Source of the DNA: Candidatus Latescibacterota bacterium
GTDB lineage: Bacteria; Latescibacterota; UBA2968
Assembly (NCBI GenBank): GCA_965207885.1
Contig: OZ242311.1
Coordinates: 5,504,001 to 5,568,000, forward strand
Direction: 5' to 3'
DNA length: 64,000 nt
Shown here: positions 23,620-54,750 of the stretch, one piece after another
How positions within the stretch are numbered: position 1 is the first letter of the stretch
How the letters are laid out: each line of letters opens with the position of its first letter
The notes under the pieces: generated by a model
What the model was told of the DNA's origin: nothing
What the model saw: only the letters and a program-made list of their open reading frames with translations
Databases searched by the model: none
Made by a program: the position numbers and the translations under genes

Positions 23620-24019
23620 AAGTGCCTCCTTTGGTTTGGGGTGAGCAAAAAGAGAGGATAGTATAATGCCGAATAATCGGCAAGACAAGCGTTTTTTAAA
23701 GCACATGGCAAGCCCAATCAGGCTTCCGGAAAAGCATCCAAAACCGTGTTGAAAATCGAGAATCTTTTTGAGTTTTTTGTACGGAATTACATATATTTCA
23801 TTTTAAAACAATAATTTATGGAAATTACGAATTCCAAAAACTTATGAAATATAACACGAAAAATAAGAATTTCTAAAACATCATATTAAGGCGTAAGCAA
23901 ATAGAAATAAAAGAGTTAAAACAACCTTGTCAACGAAAAGTTTGTTAAAAATTGTAACAGGCCAGTCGTTTGGATTCATAGAACTCACTGGTCTTGAAAA
24001 AAATGACAACCAAAACCTT

Positions 24020-44994: not shown

Positions 44995-46680
44995 TCAAAC
45001 AGACACAATGCGGATATCAACCTCAAATGCGCTGACGGGATAATTTATACCCCAGATTTCGAGAACGCCGGGATGAATCTCACCAATAAGCCCGTAAACG
45101 CGCTCGTCTATACAGATCTCGCCACTGCGACCAGGCAAAAATGTGGGATGCTCAATCGGCGCAATCGCGTATTCAAAATCAAAATAATAGGACAACACCT
45201 CCAGATAGCTCTGAACACCGGACAAATTGGCTTCGTCACTCGCTTCGAGCGCGCAAAGATGAATATCTGTGCGCGTACCGTAATCTTCCCCCGGAGCGAG
45301 AACCCCCACCTCACCCACTTCAAAAATTCGATGCGGGTACAGCGCGCGGCGACTTGTGGCTTCGGTCTTGAGCAAACCGGGCAACAACGACCCTCGAATC
45401 GCGCTGTAATTTTCGGACATAGGATTTGAAATCGAAATAATCTGTGCATCTGGATTATTCATATCCACCGTCTGTTCTTTTTGAGAACAGAGAATCGGCA
45501 AAAAGACCTCTTGAAATCCACACCCAACCATGAGATTGCGAAATCGATCTGCAAGATCCTCTTCTGGCGCGGCTTTGCCAACCGTAAAATCCCGGGGCAT
45601 CTCGGGTTCAAAAGCCTCGTACCCCACGCCGATCACAACATCTTCCACAACATCCACGGGATGTAAAATATCGTCGCGATAAGGTGCTGGACGCACGTTA
45701 ATACTCCGCTCTCCTAAATCAACATCTCGGTAACCCATCGCGTTGAGCGCAGTCTGAATCTGCCCCATCGAAACAGGTGACCCAACCACTTTGTAAATCT
45801 CATCTACATCGACCTCTAACGACTCGGTCAGATCATAGGGACACGTCACAACCTGCCCCCTCGACGTGTGATATGGATAGCGCACAGTCACGGGATAAAT
45901 GCGGGCACCCCGGTCAGCCATATTAACCGCCATAATCGCCATAGACAAAAGAATAGCGTCGAGTTCAGGTCCCGTCGCCTCGCAAAACAAAAACGCATCC
46001 CCCACTTCAACGCGCCCCAGACTCTGGCTATTAATCACAGGCGGCATGGACAGAACCTCGCCGCGCGAATCGCGGATCAGGGGAAACTTATCCTTCCCCT
46101 CGAGAAGATGTGCATACGTTCTGCCCGTGGGATGATCGGACAAAATTCGTCGCAAAGACATCTCAGACTCAGACTCCAGAGGAACAAAAGCCGTCGCATC
46201 GGGATCAACCGCATCGTATCGCACGGGATACACAATATCGGACGCATCGTAAATCCCGATCGCAACAACACTGCGACCGCGCCCATACCCATCGGCGAGT
46301 TTTTCCTGTGCCTCGATAAGCGCGTCCAGCGCCGCTTCGTCAATCGCAATACCACCACATGCAAAAGCGGCAATATAGGGACGAACATTTTGCAACGCGG
46401 GATCGACAATAACCTCCCGTTCCTCCGATACACCAGACGCATTGAAAAAAGAATACTCAGGCTGAACATTCTCCCGATGGCTTTTGAGCAACCGCGCAAG
46501 CCCCTCTGCCGACCACAAATCGGGGCGATTGGTATCCTTGAGTTGAATGCGAAGCGTATCGCCCTCTTCAGCATCAATCTCGGCCTTCGCCGTTTCAAGC
46601 GCAGCACTCAGACTCTCCGACGAATAAGCCTGCCCTGCGAGACGTTCAAAATCGGGTTTATTGACAGTAATTGTTGGCAT
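44995..46680 (-). CDS. pheT: Phenylalanyl-tRNA synthetase beta subunit, archaeal/eukaryote type
   Basis: 561 aa; MPTITV, NRPDLWS.EG, SMPPVINS, YRDDILHPVDVVEDV; lacks bacterial B2 and B8 domains. Confidence 0.9.
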   Translation of the reverse strand: MPTITVNKPDFERLAGQAYSSESLSAALETAKAEIDAEEGDTLRIQLKDTNRPDLWSAEGLARLLKSHRENVQPEYSFFNASGVSEEREVIVDPALQNVRPYIAAFACGGIAIDEAALDALIEAQEKLADGYGRGRSVVAIGIYDASDIVYPVRYDAVDPDATAFVPLESESEMSLRRILSDHPTGRTYAHLLEGKDKFPLIRDSRGEVLSMPPVINSQSLGRVEVGDAFLFCEATGPELDAILLSMAIMAVNMADRGARIYPVTVRYPYHTSRGQVVTCPYDLTESLEVDVDEIYKVVGSPVSMGQIQTALNAMGYRDVDLGERSINVRPAPYRDDILHPVDVVEDVVIGVGYEAFEPEMPRDFTVGKAAPEEDLADRFRNLMVGCGFQEVFLPILCSQKEQTVDMNNPDAQIISISNPMSENYSAIRGSLLPGLLKTEATSRRALYPHRIFEVGEVGVLAPGEDYGTRTDIHLCALEASDEANLSGVQSYLEVLSYYFDFEYAIAPIEHPTFLPGRSGEICIDERVYGLIGEIHPGVLEIWGINYPVSAFEVDIRIVSV

Positions 46681-46700: not shown

Positions 46701-48242
46701 CTACCGCGTATTCCTGACCAGATCCAAATCCGTACTGAACAAATCGCGTATATCGTTAATACCCAGCGCGACCATCGCCATTCGATCAACTCCCAGACCC
46801 CAGGCAATAACCGGAACATCCACCCCCAGAGGTCGTGTAAGCTCAGGACGAAAAAGACCCGCGCCACCGAGTTCGATCCATCCCAGAACGGGATGCTTCG
46901 CCTGAAGTTCTACCGAAGGCTCGGTAAAAGGAAAATAATCGGGCACATAGCGCACATCTTCGGACTGCGCGATCTCAAGGGCGAACAACTTGAGCAAACC
47001 GAGCAAACTGCGAAAATTTATCTCCTCGCCCAGAACAATACCCTCAGCCTGAAAAAAATCTGCCGCGTGCGTGGCATCGACATCGTCCGGGCGAAAGCAA
47101 CGCGCAAGAGCGAAATATTTACCCGGGATATTCGGCTCTGAAGCCAGCGTACGCCCCGAAAGCGCAGTACCCTGGCTACGCAAAATAAGGCGGCGCGACT
47201 GCTCGGGATTGAACTCATATCGCCACCCGCGCGAACCCGTCTCACCCCCGTTTTGATGCGCCTCGGCAACCCTGGAAAAATGGGGTTCTTCAGCCTCTCG
47301 GGATTTCGTCGGCTCCGTCACATAATACGCATCGTGAATATTGCGCGCCGCGTGGAACTGCGGCATAAAAAGGGCATCCATATTCCAAAACTCGGTCTCG
47401 ACCAGCGAACCCTTCATCTCTTCAAAACCGAGCGCCATCAACCGGCGTCGCACATTATCGAGATACGCCCGATAGGGATGGTGCTTCCCAATAAGCACGC
47501 GCGGCGGCTTAATCGACAAATCATATCGGCGAAAAGACGCACCCTGCCATGTGCCCTTCTGAATCATATCGGGCGTAAGACGAGAAATCTCATCCCCCGT
47601 GAGATTGGCTTTAACAACCTCCACAAGCACGCGCTGCCCTTCATCCGTAAGGCAATAAACCCGCTCCGTGCGCTCGTCCAAGCGAACAGGTGCCTTGCTC
47701 CCCCCGCGTTTGCGGGCATTGGCTTCGATATACTGGACAATATCACCGGGAAAATCATCAATCTCAATTCCGGTATCGGAAAATTTCTCAAACAATTCTG
47801 GCATGAGCCGATCAACAAAAAAAGAAGCGCGCTCTGCATCGACAATAACAACCGCCCCTTTGTCCAGATCGACAACCCCATCCCTTTTCAAACCGCCAAA
47901 TGCACTACCCCAGGCACCTCTGTCAAAACGCTCGTCGGCTTGCAAGTCCTGGATCCCAACGCGCTCTGCGCTCACCCGGGCCAAAAGTGCCGTCTCTGGC
48001 GTCGCGCCCTTTGAGGCAAAATCCCGTCCCACTTCCGTAAGCGAAACAGTCACGCGTGTATTTTCTCCGGTAACTTCCAGCAACTGCTTGGAAATCAGCC
48101 ACTCAACCGCGCGCCGAACCTGTCCCTCGCCGAGATCCGCGCCACTTTGAAGTTGTGCATCGGACTGCTCGGCACTGGCATTGTTTTGATACACACGCAA
48201 AATGCGAATTTCGAGCGCATGTAAAGATGCGAGATCAATCAA
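46701..48242 (-). CDS. pheS: Phenylalanyl-tRNA synthetase alpha subunit, archaeal/eukaryote type (TTG start 48242)
   Basis: About 513 aa with long N-terminal extension; FWNMDALFMPQFH, YFPFTEPS, GGAGLFRPE, INDIRDL; GGAG RBS. Confidence 0.9.
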   Translation of the reverse strand: MIDLASLHALEIRILRVYQNNASAEQSDAQLQSGADLGEGQVRRAVEWLISKQLLEVTGENTRVTVSLTEVGRDFASKGATPETALLARVSAERVGIQDLQADERFDRGAWGSAFGGLKRDGVVDLDKGAVVIVDAERASFFVDRLMPELFEKFSDTGIEIDDFPGDIVQYIEANARKRGGSKAPVRLDERTERVYCLTDEGQRVLVEVVKANLTGDEISRLTPDMIQKGTWQGASFRRYDLSIKPPRVLIGKHHPYRAYLDNVRRRLMALGFEEMKGSLVETEFWNMDALFMPQFHAARNIHDAYYVTEPTKSREAEEPHFSRVAEAHQNGGETGSRGWRYEFNPEQSRRLILRSQGTALSGRTLASEPNIPGKYFALARCFRPDDVDATHAADFFQAEGIVLGEEINFRSLLGLLKLFALEIAQSEDVRYVPDYFPFTEPSVELQAKHPVLGWIELGGAGLFRPELTRPLGVDVPVIAWGLGVDRMAMVALGINDIRDLFSTDLDLVRNTR

Positions 48243-48271
48243 GAGAAACTCCAATGTTAGTATTAGACAAC

Positions 48272-48538
48272 AAAAAAGCCCCTTCGTCATCATAGGGACG
48301 AAAGAGCTTCTCCGCGGTACCACCCTATTTGCGCTAAAAAGCACCACTCAGCGGACGGCCATCACCATCCTGTCCATTATCGGTGGATCCACCGGCTCGG
48401 CTTAATAGGAAACTGTCTTTCCATTCGGCTTTGCAGCTCGGGAGGGAACTTCGCCTGTGCATCCTGCAGATGTGTTCTCAGCCCGGGACACATCCTCTCT
48501 GTCCAGTTGGGAACAGACTACTTTTCTCCGTCATCACC
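48272..48538 (-). ncRNA. T-box riboswitch, Phe (UUC) specifier
   Basis: Stem I GA motif, AGTA, AGAGA box, GCTGA box; GAAG-TTC specifier 48446-48448; T-box AATAGGGTGGTACCGCG 48313-48329 with TTCGTCCCT; terminator 48272-48308. Confidence 0.92.
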
Positions 48539-48548
48539 TTGAAGGCAA

Positions 48549-48593: not shown

Positions 48594-49877
48594 CTATCCG
48601 TCAACCGTTTTTCCAAAGGACTCCACAAAAAGGAGAAAATCCGTAATACCAACCGCGCCATCGCCATCGATATCGAATTTGGGATTGGTTGATCCAAATG
48701 CCTCCACAAAAAGGAGAAAATCCGTAATATTCACTTGTTTATCACCGTTAAAATCGGCCCTGGGGTTGGCAGAAGAGACCTTGACTATAATAGAAACGGA
48801 CAATGTCTGTGTTGCACTATTCGGATCATTACTCGAAATCGTGATATTGCCCGAAAACGTGCCCGCTGTCGAACCTGGAAACCTAATCGTAACCGTCTGT
48901 GAACCATTGGGCTCCACTGTGAACATAGAAGGTTCAAAAGTCAGGCCCGATACATCGCTCTCAATACCTGTAATTTCAAGAGGACCCGTACCCGTGTTCG
49001 CGACCGTAATAGTTTGTTCACGCGTTTGACCAACGTCAATCGTCCCGAAATTAACTGCCGTTTGCGGCACAGAGATCGCTGGCGCAGAGGGCGATTGAAC
49101 TATGATAGAAACGGACAATGTCTGTGTTGCACTATTCGGATCATTACTCGAAATCGTGATATTGCCCGAAAACGTGCCCGCTGTCGAACTCGGAAACGCG
49201 ATCGTCACCGTAGCTGAACTATCGGGAGCCAGTGTGAACATCGTAGTATCAAACGTCAAACCCGGCACATCGCTCTCAATACCCGTAATCTCCAACGGCG
49301 CAGTACCCGTATTCGTAATCGTAATCGTTTGTTGACCTGTTTGACCGGCGTCAATCGTCCCGAAATCAACTGCCGTTTGCGGCACTGCGATCGTCGGCGC
49401 AGGGGGCGGTATTTGCGCCAATAGTTCATTAACCCCGTCTTTCACTCTTGTAACAGAACTTGAACTCAAACCGCCTATGACGGGCAATGCAGTCCCATTG
49501 GGACGAACCACAACGAAATTCTCATACTGGGCCGGAGCAGCACCACCTGCATTTAGAAGCAAGGGAAAGGTAATGCCTCCGTTCCTGCGAAAGCCATCCA
49601 CCTGTGCCTGATTGCCATTCCAAGCATCGAGACCGAGCATCTCAACATTGGGATCTGCTTTATAATCTTGCCATAAACCTTCGAGTCGCGGACCCGCGGC
49701 TCTACAGGAAGGTCAGCTATACCCAAAGACCGCAAGTATGAGCACTTTGCCGCGATAGTCAGAGGCACTATATGTATTGCCGTCGAGACCCCGTAAAGAA
49801 AAATTAACCGTTTGTGCAGAAGCGGACCCGACGAGCAAAAGCAGAATCATCGGGATGGACAATAGATATTGGCGCAT
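48594..49877 (-). CDS. Predicted secreted selenoprotein: UxxC redoxin + two Ig-like (ASH/choice-of-anchor D-like) repeats + dockerin-like EF-hand pair (427 aa)
   Basis: MRQYLLSIPMILLLLVGSASAQTVNFSLRGLDGNTYSASDYRGKVLILAVFGYS-TGA-PSCRAAGPRLEGLWQDYK continues in frame into track ORF 48594..49640; GAGGA RBS. Confidence 0.85.
49678..49712 (-). promoter_or_regulatory. Bacterial SECIS-like hairpin
   Basis: After TGA 49713-49715: CCTTC/GAAGG lower stem, GAG/CTC, CGCG/CGCG, apical loop GGTC 18 nt from the UGA. Confidence 0.7.
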
Positions 49878-49923
49878 GGCATTTATCCTCGTATATTGAT
49901 GAAAATAATGACAACCAAAACCT

Positions 49924-49956
49924 CTGGATCGCGGCTCAACTTCATGCCGCGATGAC
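49924..49956. repeat. CTGGA-stem-TGAC REP copy
   Basis: CTGGATCGCGGCTCAACTTCATGCCGCGATGAC; shares upstream flank AATGACAACCAAAACC with the 24020 copy. Confidence 0.75.
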
Positions 49957-50032
49957 GGCTCTTCTGTCCTAAAGGTATCAACGCTTCAATTTAACAGAAG
50001 TTTCTCCACAGGTCAACCACAAGGAGCGAGCG

Positions 50033-51024: not shown

Positions 51025-52222
51025 CATAGTACACGACAAAAAATAAAAGACCTGTGAAAAAAGCTAAAAAGAGTTAGGTTTGAATGTCCCAAGACAAACC
51101 TTTCTCATCTTAACAAGGCACAGGTCTATGTCTCCTGAAACTATTGAACTTCAAACGATTATGCAAGGATATTTTCACTGGCATAAAGCCCGAATAACGT
51201 TTACCGCTGCGTTCATATTGTCGCTGATAAAATTGCGTAGCGTCAATTTTATGAAACTGGCAAACGCACTCAATGGAACCGTCAAGCAGAAATCTAATTA
51301 TCGTCGTATCCAACGCTTCTTTGCCCACTTTGCCTTACCCTATGCGTGTGTGAGACAATTGATCTTGCACTTATTACCTATAAAGTCGGATTTTATAGTC
51401 TCAATAGATCGCACCAATTGGAAGTTGGGAAAATTCAATATCAACATCCTAACCGCAGGCATTATCTATGAAGGGGTCGCCTTTCCTATCTGTTGGCACT
51501 TGTTAAAAAAACGGGGCAATTCCAATAGTGATGAGCGTATCCATTTGATGCAAGAAATGCTCAACTGCATCTGCAAATCGCATATCCGCGTTGTCGTCGC
51601 AGACAGAGAATTTATTGGAAGAGAATGGTTTAGGTGGTTAGACACACAAAATATACCCTTTGTTATTCGCATCAAGGAAAACGCTCTTGTCTCATCAGGC
51701 GGTAGAGAGATCCCCATAAGAAAACGGTTTGAAAATCTTAATATCCATCAGCAGGTCAACTTGTGCAAACGCCACCGCGTTTATGACCTGCCTGTATATC
51801 TGTCTGCACTAAGATTGAAGGACCAATACCTCATTCTTGCCAGCAACCAAAAAGGTCAAGCCGCATTGGATACCTATAAAAAACGATGGGGCATTGAAGT
51901 CCTTTTTGCCAATCTTAAAAGTCGAGGATTTAATCTGGAAGAGACCCATCTTATACATCAAGACCGCATTGAGAAACTCATCGCGCTTTTGGCCATTGCC
52001 TGCATCTGGGCGCATATCATCGGCGAATGGATAGCAAAAACAAATCCTTTGACGATCAAAAATCACGGGCGGATGGAGAAAAGTCTCTTCCGATATGGGT
52101 TGGACTATTTGCAGTATGTCCTGCTCAATATAAACCAACAAACCCAACAGTTCCTCATATGCATTCGTTTACTGAGTAATCCGCCACTGTTTAAAACAAT
52201 TTAAGTTTTGTCGTGTACCATG
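51025..52222 (+). mobile_element. IS4-family insertion sequence, 1198 bp, 17-bp terminal IRs, 9-bp TSD
   Basis: IRL CATAGTACACGACAAAA, IRR reverse complement CATGGTACACGACAAAA; GTTACAATG at 51016-51024 and 52223-52231. Confidence 0.92.
51128..52204 (+). CDS. IS4-family DDE transposase
   Basis: SIDRTNW, ADREFIG, YKKRWGIEVLFANLK (YREK signature); start uncertain. Confidence 0.9.
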   Translation: MSPETIELQTIMQGYFHWHKARITFTAAFILSLIKLRSVNFMKLANALNGTVKQKSNYRRIQRFFAHFALPYACVRQLILHLLPIKSDFIVSIDRTNWKLGKFNINILTAGIIYEGVAFPICWHLLKKRGNSNSDERIHLMQEMLNCICKSHIRVVVADREFIGREWFRWLDTQNIPFVIRIKENALVSSGGREIPIRKRFENLNIHQQVNLCKRHRVYDLPVYLSALRLKDQYLILASNQKGQAALDTYKKRWGIEVLFANLKSRGFNLEETHLIHQDRIEKLIALLAIACIWAHIIGEWIAKTNPLTIKNHGRMEKSLFRYGLDYLQYVLLNINQQTQQFLICIRLLSNPPLFKTI

Positions 52223-52228
52223 GTTACA

Positions 52229-53458
52229 ATGAGCAAACGCGATGCAGAGCAAGTACAAAAAGTATTGTCTGGCGACCAGACAGCTTACGAACCGCTGGTT
52301 GAGGCGTATCAAGGGCGCATCTATGCCTTTGTGGCTGGTCGAATCCGCAACTTTTCCGCAACAGAAGACATCGTACAAAATGCGTTTGTGGAGGCATACA
52401 TGCACCTCAAGTCTCTAAAATCGCCCGAAAAATTCTCCGGTTGGCTACGGGGAATTGCACTCAATCTATCAAACAAATGGATTCAACAAAAGCGTCCCGT
52501 CGTCTCAATTGACGATACATCACAAGATGTAACGCCTGAAATATCAGAACTTCCATTGCCAGACTTGCCCGACGAAGTACTGGAAAAAACCGAAACAAAA
52601 GAAGCCGTTACAGCCGCCGTGGATGCACTGCCAGACATTTATCGAGAATCGGTATTGCTCCACTACATGGAAGGCATGACCTATCCCCAAATCGCCGCCT
52701 TTCTCGACATCCCCGAAAGCACAGTAACGGGTCGCCTGCAGGTTGCGCGCAATCGCTTGCGCGACGAATTGCTCCCACTGGTAGAAGACACACTCCGCGA
52801 AAAACGCCCAACCTCTCAACTGACGCGCAAAGTAATGGCCGCATTACCCCCGCTATTGTACGCAGTGCCAACACAGGCAAGCCTACTCGCCAAACTGAAA
52901 GGAACAGGCATGATAAAAATAACGGGTATCATCGGCGCAGGTATCGCGGGAACGGGATTGTATTTTGGTGGGATTTCGGCAGTGTTGAATTTAGAACAAG
53001 AAAACAATGAGTCATCCCAGATGCCCCAAATACAGCTCGAATTGGAAAACCCCGCTCCAAATGAGCAGCCCATTCCTGAGAAAACTGATGCGACAGACGG
53101 AACAGAATCTTCGCGACAAGAAGTCAAATCCGATACCAATACAAGTGGCGACACACAAGCAGAAAAACTGGACTTCAGAATGGAAACTTCGCCACAAGAT
53201 TCACTGGTAAAAATAGTGTACTGGATCCCTAAAGCGGTCTATTCGGATTCCGTCTTTATAGAACTCGATTGCTTCAACATCCAGGGGGCAAGAGCCGCTA
53301 AGCCGGTCAATAAAATGCACGCACCCGGTTCTTATACGACATTCTTATCTAAACAGGGACTTCCCGACGGAAGATACTATGTGAGATTAAGAGCAAATCG
53401 ATCAGATAAAAACGCAATGGTACGCGCATTGAATCTAATTTGGACAGAAAGAAAGTGA
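52229..53458 (+). CDS. ECF sigma factor with C-terminal TM segment and Ig/CTD-like extension
   Basis: EDIVQNAFVEAY, FSGWLRGIA, TYPQIA...STVTGRL; hydrophobic GIIGAGIAGTGLYFGGISAV; FNIQG...GLPDGRYYVRL; ATG lies within the TSD. Confidence 0.8.
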   Translation: MSKRDAEQVQKVLSGDQTAYEPLVEAYQGRIYAFVAGRIRNFSATEDIVQNAFVEAYMHLKSLKSPEKFSGWLRGIALNLSNKWIQQKRPVVSIDDTSQDVTPEISELPLPDLPDEVLEKTETKEAVTAAVDALPDIYRESVLLHYMEGMTYPQIAAFLDIPESTVTGRLQVARNRLRDELLPLVEDTLREKRPTSQLTRKVMAALPPLLYAVPTQASLLAKLKGTGMIKITGIIGAGIAGTGLYFGGISAVLNLEQENNESSQMPQIQLELENPAPNEQPIPEKTDATDGTESSRQEVKSDTNTSGDTQAEKLDFRMETSPQDSLVKIVYWIPKAVYSDSVFIELDCFNIQGARAAKPVNKMHAPGSYTTFLSKQGLPDGRYYVRLRANRSDKNAMVRALNLIWTERK

Positions 53459-53466
53459 GGCTCATC

Positions 53467-54750
53467 ATGTATTTCAACAAGTGCAAACTATTAGTGAGTC
53501 TGGCGATGTGTCTGAATGCATATTCCGTGTGTTTTGCACAACAGCCAACCCATTCGAAAGAAGAAATGAATCGCTTTAATCAATTTAGGAGCGGATACCC
53601 ACCCGAGACCACAGAGCAGTACTGGGAACGTATTTTGGGACTGGAGCAACTGCTTGCCGATTATCCCAACACCTTTTTGAAAGGCGACATCTCCATCACC
53701 CTGTTGAATTATTACCAGCATGTCACCGATGATCCACACCTGTTGATAGAGCTATCTGACAAAATGCTCGCATTGCGAATGTATTCCAACGGTGCTTATG
53801 AAACGGCTGCTCGGATACTCGTAGATAAGAAAGTTCGGTCTGATAAAACGCTTCTATATGCACAAAACGCATTAAAAGAAGCGCTGCAGAAACAAAAAAA
53901 ATGGGGAGGTAATGGTCGAGGAGAACTAATTTGCCGGGATCTATTGGCGCGTGCTCATCAACTCCTTGGACAACACGACCGTGCTGTCGCAGAAATAAAG
54001 ACCGCGATTCGCGGTTGGCAAACTCGAGAAGATTTAGGCGACCTGGAAATGGCATCTCGGCAGGCATCAGTCGATAAAGCAAAGACCCACTTGCTTCGGA
54101 TCTATATCGACCAAAAAGCATGGACAGAGGCTTATGAACTCGCCTCAGAACTATTGCTCTCATCGATCATCCGCACGGATATAGCAGAATTATGGAGCCA
54201 GGCTTATACTGGCAAATTCGGTTCAGGTGCAGGCATGAGCAAAGCATACGTTGCCTTAAAAGCCAGGTGGGATAAAAAAATTATCCAACGCGTCGAAAAA
54301 AAACGCATCTCACGCCCTGCACCCACCTTTGAAGTCCAAAAGTTAGACGGTGAGAAAATCACTTCAGAGGACTTAAAAGGCAAAGCTATGGTACTAACAT
54401 TTTGGGCGGGATGGTGCAGCCCGTGCATTGAAGAACTGCCCTATCTCCAAAACCTCAAAACGCAATTTCGCAAACAAAATGTTGAATTTTTAGCGATAAA
54501 TATCGACCAGGACAGCTCAATGCGCCGGGATATGGTCGCCAGCTTTCGGTACCAGAGCGCACCGCTTTTAACCTTTGCATTGGGCGATCTGCAAATGCGA
54601 AAAGCGTTTGGCTCCGACGAGATTCCCTATACCTGCATCATCGATCAGAACGGACAGATTCGATATGAACGCAAGGGATTAGGTGCGGACTTCAGCGTGG
54701 CAATGGCGCATCAATTGGAGTGGGTCATCGGAATGAATGGAACACAATGA
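53467..54750 (+). CDS. TlpA/ResA-like thiol-disulfide oxidoreductase with helical-repeat N-terminus
   Basis: Signal peptide; APTFEV..LDG...LKGK...FWAGWCSPC...IPYTCIIDQNG. Confidence 0.85.
   Translation: MYFNKCKLLVSLAMCLNAYSVCFAQQPTHSKEEMNRFNQFRSGYPPETTEQYWERILGLEQLLADYPNTFLKGDISITLLNYYQHVTDDPHLLIELSDKMLALRMYSNGAYETAARILVDKKVRSDKTLLYAQNALKEALQKQKKWGGNGRGELICRDLLARAHQLLGQHDRAVAEIKTAIRGWQTREDLGDLEMASRQASVDKAKTHLLRIYIDQKAWTEAYELASELLLSSIIRTDIAELWSQAYTGKFGSGAGMSKAYVALKARWDKKIIQRVEKKRISRPAPTFEVQKLDGEKITSEDLKGKAMVLTFWAGWCSPCIEELPYLQNLKTQFRKQNVEFLAINIDQDSSMRRDMVASFRYQSAPLLTFALGDLQMRKAFGSDEIPYTCIIDQNGQIRYERKGLGADFSVAMAHQLEWVIGMNGTQ

Follow-up and report, generated by a model that had tools for sequence, protein, structure and literature searches.

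Bacterial selenoproteins of the Prx-like (peroxiredoxin-like) family are described, in the published passages devoted to them, by an AhpC-TSA domain in which the thioredoxin-like motif U-x-x-C (U, selenocysteine or Sec) replaces the T-x-x-U of peroxiredoxins, and by the existence of cysteine (Cys) homologs (PMC1088965). The Prx-like thiol:disulfide oxidoreductase (PF00578, UxxC/UxxU) is 'predicted with high confidence' in the tabulated part of PMC13188914. The gene analyzed here lies on the minus strand of a stretch of 64,000 nucleotides (nt) from the genome of a Candidatus Latescibacterota bacterium (assembly GCA_965207885.1, contig OZ242311.1, positions 5,504,001 to 5,568,000; hereafter the window). 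It is predicted to code for an exported selenoprotein in which a head of this kind is followed by two immunoglobulin (Ig)-like domains and a dockerin. The head shares with the Prx-like family, as far as its published description goes, the AhpC-TSA domain, the U-x-x-C motif and the Cys homologs, but it is only one of the modules that make up an exported protein of 427 residues, whereas the published descriptions, in the passages considered, include neither Ig-like repeats nor a dockerin or sorting domain. The main text of PMC13188914 does not contain the terms Latescibacter, Gemmatimonad, signal peptide, secreted or periplasm, and a search of titles and passages of the open literature yielded no selenoprotein that carries a dockerin or a stalk of choice-of-anchor D type.

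Other described systems resemble separate parts of the protein. The exported redoxins of the ResA/TlpA/StoA/CcmG type give the best sequence and fold matches to the head and likewise have their active-site motif where helix 1 begins. They differ in that their first active-site Cys is a Sec here, that the head does not reach the score of their equivalog models and that it has no counterpart of their conserved cis-proline. ResA-type proteins are tethered to the membrane by their amino terminus, whereas the present protein has a cleavable-looking signal peptide and a carboxyl-terminal anchor module. A ResA-like WAxxUGC selenoprotein has also been curated (NF041054), and a gene with the motif W-A-S-W-U-G-C adjoins selD in the source genome, but the motif of the present protein is G-Y-S-U-P-S-C and NF041054 is absent from its NCBIfam matches; that model matched only the neighboring Cys protein coded at 53440-54750, far below cut-off. 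The Ig-like repeats match the choice-of-anchor D model (NF012200, choice_anch_D) at 127.2 bits against a cut-off of 45. The OS_HP2 (seleno)protein family (NF041425), which matches the repeats too, was rejected as an assignment: its 55.2 bits miss the cut-off of 100 (no match exceeded 43 bits when the genome was scanned), and the Sec of the present protein stands in the redoxin head and not in the Ig-like part. Cohesin-dockerin assemblies (cellulosomes and non-cellulosomal dockerins) are similar in the two tandem segments of calcium loop plus helix and in the cohesins and dockerin-tagged hydrolases coded in the genome. The differences are the selenoenzyme cargo, the single cohesins on giant proteins with a terminal sorting-type domain of type IX secretion instead of multi-cohesin scaffoldins, the diderm Latescibacterota host and the docking itself, which is a prediction. 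Recoding of UGA with the help of a selenocysteine insertion sequence (SECIS), Prx-like U-x-x-C heads, exported ResA-type redoxins and cohesin-dockerin pairs are thus all of known kinds. The Sec chemistry being known, what appears to be new from the comparison of homologs is the interchangeable anchoring of the Sec head.

The minus strand holds a single frame of 427 codons from the ATG at 49877 to the TAG at 48596-48594, interrupted solely by a TGA at 49715-49713 (codon 55; Table 1). Under genetic-code table 11 the frame is split into an open reading frame (ORF) of 54 codons (49713..49877) and one of 348 codons (48594..49640); the gene product is probably one 427-residue pre-protein rather than the product of the 348-codon ORF. 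The amino terminus shows by inspection the features of a signal peptide, with a basic start, a hydrophobic core and A-S-A preceding Q22. The AhpC-TSA family of Pfam matches residues 23-120 (44.1 bits, cut-off 26), with a match to Redoxin as well, and is followed by two Ig-like domains of the HYDIN/VesB/DUF1573 type (PF22544, 109.1 bits, cut-off 25.5). The duplication that gave these domains is visible as a 300-nt direct repeat of 84% identity with a spacing of 315 nt, and the paired dockerin segments as a 42-nt repeat of 90% identity with a spacing of 81 nt. The dockerin is matched by Dockerin_1 at residues 374-416 (24.8 bits, cut-off 22.9) and by the NCBIfam model dockerin_GC with 34.9 bits for a cut-off of 29; when the whole genome was scanned with this model, the tail reached 39.2 bits and was the best match. 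By inspection, its loops carry D or N at positions 1, 3, 5, 9 and 12.

Table 1. Features of the candidate selenoprotein gene, in coordinates of the window.
Feature	Position	Strand	Basis and remarks
Whole gene	48594..49877	-	427-codon frame read through one UGA; same layout in full-length orthologues
Shine-Dalgarno-like GAGGA	49886..49890	-	8 nt 5' of the ATG; by inspection
Signal-peptide-like amino terminus, residues 1-21 (MRQYLLSIPMILLLLVGSASA)	49815..49877	-	By inspection; similar amino termini in aligned homologs
ResA/Prx-like thioredoxin-fold domain, residues 22-158, active site U55-P-S-C58	49404..49814	-	Pfam, sequence, fold
In-frame TGA, codon 55, very probably read as selenocysteine	49713..49715	-	Column conservation; contigs from other studies
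SECIS-like hairpin GAGCCGCG/GGUC/CGCGACUC	49683..49702	-	Loop 49694-49691; folding and compensatory change in relatives
First Ig-like domain (choice-of-anchor D / HYDIN-VesB / DUF1573), residues 161-261	49095..49397	-	Pfam, NCBIfam, repeat, model, fold
Second Ig-like domain, residues 266-366, 315-nt duplication	48780..49082	-	Pfam, NCBIfam, repeat, model, fold
Dockerin, residues 373-424, calcium-loop and helix segments DFNGDKQVNITDFLLF and DIDGDGAVGITDFLLF	48606..48761	-	Pfam, NCBIfam, 42-nt repeat

A sequence-only reading of the window had described this gene as a hidden secreted selenoprotein, and every element of its description is confirmed in the sequence, position by position. The start at ATG 49877 with its ribosome-binding site, the signal-peptide-like amino terminus and the TGA at codon 55 are where it had placed them, and the TGA is the first position of the redoxin motif in ...AVFGYS-U-PSC...; on the redoxin assignment Pfam, NCBIfam, a confident structural model and a fold search agree. 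The two Ig-like repeats and the paired dockerin motifs were borne out by the DNA repeats, Pfam and NCBIfam, the Ig-like domains also by the fold search, and the hairpin it had noticed begins its GGUC loop 18 nt after the UGA.

The source genome, a single contig of 6.23 Mb, contains the machinery for Sec incorporation that such a gene calls on: selA adjacent to selB, a selD with its own TGA and, adjoining selD, the gene of tRNA-Sec (70.1 bits), all four exceeding their curated cut-offs. The codon itself is conserved. Sixty-six aligned copies of the gene (62 loci, from four families of the phylum) have at the U55 column TGA (59 copies) or Cys (seven) and no other residue, with Trp in none; two of the seven Cys rows are doubtful members, since L074 is a redoxin of the ordinary WCAPC type and L046 a fragment that contains a TAA. 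A TGA that recurs at one column in 59 of the 66 copies goes beyond chance. Column and frame are kept across these 59 copies at identities down to ~30%, the motif is invariably U-x-x-C, the 15 residues that precede it are conserved and its second C is invariant in the sets A2 (17 loci and P0119) and A3 (19 loci), each including the window gene. Both flanks of the TGA, signal peptide included, are conserved as protein. Taken together, these comparisons make it very probable that the gene is a real selenoprotein gene.

The distribution of the family was defined with the amino-terminal 161 residues, read through stops, as query (E <= 1e-10) in 168 genomes of the phylum. Matches were found in 102 genomes: 29 of 30 in family f1, 20 of 22 in f2, two of three in f3 and 50 of 76 in f4, while in ten other families of the phylum none of 36 genomes matched this head query at the same threshold. 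The protein family is found in four families of one class of the phylum. An in-frame TGA is present in 143 of the 150 matches listed; six are without a stop and one has TAA (13 further matches stand outside this listing). A search within the same taxonomic family gave a match in 30 of 31 genomes, and the best matches, down to ~28% identity, have one TGA each. In a maximum-likelihood tree built from 55 rows of the head domain (a masked row was omitted, and the root is a midpoint only), f4 and f3 are split from f1 and f2 (support 99/95), and the three forms that combine a Cys head with a dockerin are each isolated among Sec forms.

Several further copies and selenoprotein genes were observed on the way. 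A second Sec paralog of the same architecture (paralog B, L092) is found at 5298 kb of the source contig (G000:C1), two genomes of the same genus carry two family copies in tandem (L028, L029), and a tandem array at G071:C1:5119500-5124500 (L109) has three copies that are, by a regular-expression count of repeats, Sec with two Ig-like domains, Cys with none and Sec with one. The genes of tRNA-Sec, of the TGA-containing selD and of the W-A-S-W-U-G-C ResA-like protein lie side by side (G000:C1:5699077-5700926; L014, L017, L093). One in-frame TGA is present in eight of the 29 AhpC-TSA matches of the source genome, and three of these eight were looked at (the window gene, L092 and L093); the organism seems to be rich in redoxin-type selenoproteins. 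An alternative genetic code, in which TGA would stand for Trp or Gly, is not accepted, because a TGA terminates paralog B, homologs show Cys at the column and the Sec machinery is complete.

The stem of the hairpin begins 10 nt and its loop 18 nt after the UGA, with an optional lower stem that extends to about 49712-49678, and the 66-nt segment that holds it folds at -19.1 kcal/mol (RNAfold). Note that the comparative figures which follow come from related sequences and that none of them is a probability. When the best hairpin at this place is measured in 52 distinct Sec forms, its mean energy is -9.3 kcal/mol, whereas synonymous recodings average -6.1 (mean z -1.31), and 49 of the 52 have G among the first two bases of the loop; the same measure in seven Cys forms gives -5.8 against -4.7 kcal/mol (z -0.56). 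This place-specific measure supersedes a blunter one, the folding of the whole 45 nt, with which Sec forms had a mean z of -0.94 relative to synonymous recodings. At least three stem registers occur, which differ between clades, and in one of them pair 18-29 is changed from C-G to G-C in four relatives. Part of the evidence weighs against a dedicated recoding signal. In the window gene the hairpin has a z of only -1.28 relative to dinucleotide shuffles, 25 of 200 of which fold as well, and -12.4 against -9.7 kcal/mol relative to synonymous recodings (z -0.99), and in its closest orthologues the 45 nt after the codon have z values of about 0 or positive (+0.92 for the gene itself). With one register fixed on set A1, pairing is 70.1% against 67.8% in shuffled alignments, 23 of 500 of which reach it, and covariation is weak, with three pairs changed on both sides. 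The peptide C-x-A-A-G-P, which is conserved under the stem, by itself favors a G+C-rich palindrome. A SECIS-like hairpin is thus found at the place where it had been described, with modest statistics. Published passages describe the bacterial SECIS as having a small apical loop that holds a guanosine (PMC1088965); it is plausible that the present hairpin, which is compatible with this description, is a SECIS.

The structure of the full-length protein was modeled with AlphaFold2 from 18 aligned full-length homologs. The model has a mean predicted local distance difference test score (pLDDT) of 89.1 and a predicted template modeling score (pTM) of 0.48, as expected for beads on a string, and U55 stands immediately before helix 56-60. 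With Foldseek the head finds chains of ResA (1su9_B, 3c71, 2h1b_A; template modeling score by target 0.77-0.82, root-mean-square deviation 2.2-2.8, 20-22% identity) and the repeats find Ig-like domains of the HYDIN/ASH/CEP192 type. ResA is also the best solved relative by sequence (E 1e-7). U-P-S-C aligns to its active-site motif and U55 to its first active-site Cys (CPHC in the 3c71 variant). The AhpC-TSA family scores 53-60 bits in the relatives, and on the head every curated NCBIfam model stays below its cut-off, the equivalogs of ResA (38.8 bits against 170), TlpA (19.1 against 230) and StoA (25.6 against 210) included. A peroxiredoxin proper was rejected on the motif, which is U-x-x-C rather than T-x-x-U. 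The description that fits best is that of the 'Prx-like' selenoprotein family, an AhpC-TSA-type domain with U-x-x-C that has been described in computational surveys, and the protein is probably an exported thiol/selenol redox enzyme, as judged from motif and domain matches. A conserved counterpart of the ResA cis-proline is missing from the alignments: the ResA segment which we take to hold the cis-proline is a gap in the alignment with the head, and neither A2 nor A3 has a conserved Pro before the strand ...FVVV, where the residues are mostly acidic or amide (Y-E-N, V-E-N, R-E-D).

The carboxyl-terminal part is where the homologs vary. Among 56 distinct complete read-through homologs, 37 combine Sec with a dockerin, 13 Sec with a PNPF-type carboxyl-terminal domain and three Cys with a dockerin; two Sec forms have neither tail (one of them masked by N) and the last is a doubtful Cys redoxin. 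Dockerin forms come from families f1-f3 and PNPF forms from f4. The number of Ig-like repeats is 0-4 in these complete homologs, by a regular-expression count that may miscount, and public truncated calls of 243, 348, ~470, 560 and 665 residues suggest one to five. The PNPF-type tail reads as a sorting domain of type IX secretion: nine of the 13 forms were scanned with Pfam and FlgD_ig was above cut-off in all nine, with CHU_C in two, while Por_Secre_tail was listed in five of the nine and exceeded its own cut-off in one, which weakens this assignment. In one relative (L104, G114:C206, 639 amino acids) a serine hydrolase domain of the beta-lactamase family (225.8 bits) was observed between the Sec head and the sorting-type tail.

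The presence of cohesins in the source genome, to which the sequence-only reading had pointed as partners to look for, was established. There are two Cohesin modules above the cut-off of 24.1 (32.1 and 37.5 bits; G000:C1:722612-722974 and 726488-726841), each directly before a FlgD_ig/Por_Secre_tail domain, and their carriers are ORFs of 3034 and 1265 residues with the sorting-type domain at the end. Por_Secre_tail occurs at eight places of the genome (five above cut-off), and a SprA homolog is present; two of the four proteins with the best sorting domains are the cohesin carriers. Dockerin_1 occurs at 40 places, either directly after a signal peptide or at the carboxyl terminus. The 35 other dockerin ORFs scanned include a 2694-residue protein with glycoside hydrolase family 5 (GH5), fn3, cadherin and leucine-rich repeat (LRR) domains, a GH10, a GH113, two sulfatases, peptidases of the S8, M10 and M12-like types, an esterase similar to polyhydroxybutyrate (PHB) depolymerases, a pectate-lyase-like protein, five WD40 and four LRR proteins, and nine proteins without a family at E <= 1e-6. 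A subtilase among these 35 (L145, G000:C1:4999860-5001425) carries the same two choice-of-anchor-D Ig-like domains and a dockerin; this stalk and anchor is therefore common to unrelated enzymes. Two Cys TlpA-like redoxins (L090, G000:C1:772188-772904, WATWCSPC; L091, G000:C1:6073152-6073871, WGTWCGPC) were seen to have an amino-terminal dockerin directly after the signal peptide, their genes lying beside those of dockerin-bearing LRR proteins.

The best explanation overall, to which we give a probability of about 0.8, joins recoding, export, a redox head and surface docking. UGA-55 would be decoded as Sec by SelB and tRNA-Sec, aided by the hairpin that starts 10 nt downstream, and the signal peptide, as judged from its sequence, would carry the protein across the inner membrane. 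In the head, Sec55-x-x-Cys58 would cycle between the selenol/thiol and the selenenylsulfide states and exchange redox equivalents with thiols and disulfides of exported substrates. The two Ig-like domains would act as a spacer, after which the carboxyl-terminal dockerin of calcium type would plug into one of the two cohesin modules on the giant proteins with a type IX sorting-type domain. The Sec head would thus sit on the surface of the cell, next to hydrolases that bear dockerins, and a sister family would bring the same Sec head to the same kind of address directly, through what appears to be a type IX sorting domain of its own. Surface docking is the best reading of the tail because the homologs combine the head with two different surface-address modules, enzymes with external substrates bear the dockerin too and cohesins occur only on cargo of type IX type; from these modules, docking of the protein at the cell surface, to the giant proteins that carry the cohesins, has roughly even odds. 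The earlier proposal of a surface-scaffold display stands as regards the unusual architecture, while the display is drawn from the co-occurrence of modules and from the relatives with type IX sorting-type tails.

The alternative that survives best accepts the selenoprotein and disputes its docking to cohesins: the protein would be a periplasmic reductase of the ResA/TlpA type, engaged for example in the maturation of cytochromes or copper proteins, and its tail a calcium-binding pair or another binder. The points that weigh against docking largely favor it. The TonB-dependent receptor coded in the window indicates an outer membrane, hence a diderm cell, and a plain signal peptide takes a protein only as far as the periplasm of such a cell; the protein has neither a sorting domain nor a lipobox. 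Dockerin_1 is only just above its cut-off, the tails of the relatives L100 and L111 score as EF-hand only, two cohesin modules face some 40 dockerins, and the argument for docking is the co-occurrence of modules. The closest solved relatives are moreover ResA, TlpA, StoA and DsbF, which act outside the cytoplasmic membrane and not on the outer surface. Against a periplasmic reductase, relatives carry the same head on an apparent type IX sorting domain, an address that would lie on the outer surface; among the other dockerin proteins are glycoside hydrolases, sulfatases and peptidases, which depend on substrates outside the cell; the number of Ig-like spacers varies, as for a stand-off from an anchor; and dockerin_GC is clearly above cut-off, with this tail as the best match of the genome. 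On this balance a periplasmic reductase is unlikely, if far from implausible. A predicted complex of a cohesin (L089:13300-14172, residues 50-195) and the dockerin (residues 366-427) scored 0.13 for a mark of 0.32, with no folded controls, and carries no weight here.

Much less can be said for the TGA as a true stop, with translation into an exported peptide of 54 residues and a separate 348-residue 'choice-of-anchor D' protein starting at Met80. Table 11 gives exactly these two ORFs, and the 348-residue form is found in public collections together with relatives. Such a stop would cut the thioredoxin fold between strand 1 and the active-site helix and would leave a second product with Ig-like and dockerin modules and no signal peptide, whereas Cys homologs run through the position without a break, frame and TGA column are kept in the 59 copies described above and the Sec machinery is complete. 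Among the best 120 public predictions that resemble the read-through protein, 84 have M-[LFIVM]-G-[LVAIM]-D as their first residues, with the Met of codon 80 directly after the TGA as their start, three begin with MPRLEG, and the one call of full length (P0119) has C-A-P-C. The entries are named 'choice-of-anchor D domain-containing protein', a name that covers the truncated product only, and come from metagenome-assembled genomes (MAGs) of Gemmatimonadota/Gemmatimonadetes or Latescibacteria. Among species-representative genomes, all seven close relatives found with the query P0122, which retrieves close relatives only, are in MAGs titled Latescibacterota or Latescibacteria.

The stretch was found, whole or in part, in 20 run rows of nine studies, most of them labeled sponge metagenome, and three sponge-metagenome runs that were examined match it with high identity. 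The codon is also spanned, with nothing different at 49713-49715, by run contigs of two other studies: one (X5 record 17) has no other letters over 49142-50000 and one (X7 record 28) has a single other letter. A metatranscriptomic contig of 719 nt (X19 record 11) also bridges the TGA, although DNA can be present in such libraries; the metatranscriptomic contigs (X18, X19) leave 48778-49263 uncovered and cannot give transcript ends or level. The conservation, the public calls, the tree and these contigs make it very unlikely that the TGA is an error or a private nonsense mutation or that it separates two genes, the two-gene account being highly improbable. The idea that the TGA arose as an error of sequencing, as a nonsense mutation of one strain or in a decaying pseudogene, for which nothing was found beyond the single in-frame stop of a single assembly taken alone, can practically be dismissed, with the codon unchanged in other studies and a TGA in nearly all matches listed, both halves of the gene conserved as protein and matches in most of the phylum's genomes searched.

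Directly 3' of the selenoprotein gene, a T-box leader, which scores 98.5 bits with Rfam RF00230 (gathering score 93), occupies 48291-48543 of the minus strand, upstream of pheS (46701-48347) and pheT (44995-46680) in this Latescibacterota genome. On the 5' side, 46 nt from the ATG, a dispersed hairpin repeat of 34 nt is found at 49923-49956 (minus strand), with other copies in the window at 24019 and 27472. It consists of ATCGCGGC, a loop of 10 nt, GCCGCGAT and then CCAGAAGGTTTT. The genome has 37 copies with at most four mismatches, and four of the 37 show a compensatory change, ATTGCGGC...GCCGCAAT. Summed contig depth over the repeat climbs from ~20 to >1000 in two DNA runs. The repeat looks like a repetitive extragenic palindromic (REP) element or a terminator. 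Further away, the plus strand codes for a DDE transposase (51080-52204) and a sigma factor of the extracytoplasmic function (ECF) type with a long carboxyl-terminal extension (52208-53458), whose gene overlaps that of a 436-residue protein (53440-54750, plus strand) that ends in a Cys ResA/TlpA-like redoxin.

The whole family is mis-called in public collections, where its members are named for the Ig-like repeats only. Because public calls start after the UGA and no curated model covers the head, the selenoproteomes of the phylum are under-counted. As far as the published passages tell, the exported selenoproteins of thioredoxin fold predicted to date have a single domain, whereas the Sec head would here be a cargo module with swappable surface addresses. 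This swapping makes an extracellular location testable and raises the role of a selenol outside the cell, where no reductant is obvious. A cohesin-dockerin system in a diderm phylum, with cohesins only on type IX-type cargo, raises in turn the passage of dockerin proteins across the outer membrane. In a tentative and on the whole doubtful extension of these findings, Latescibacterota would run a cell-surface selenoenzyme system whose Sec head is displayed interchangeably by a type IX sorting domain of its own or by an Ig stalk with a dockerin that plugs into the cohesins of giant proteins secreted by the type IX route. Dockerin proteins (about 40 with the selenoenzyme, without a sorting domain of their own) would ride cohesin cargo over the outer membrane, in a piggy-back branch of type IX secretion, to form a mixed redox and hydrolase 'cellulosome-like' coat on a sponge symbiont. 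Because the stretch occurs in sponge-metagenome runs, selenium use may matter to the sponge symbiosis.

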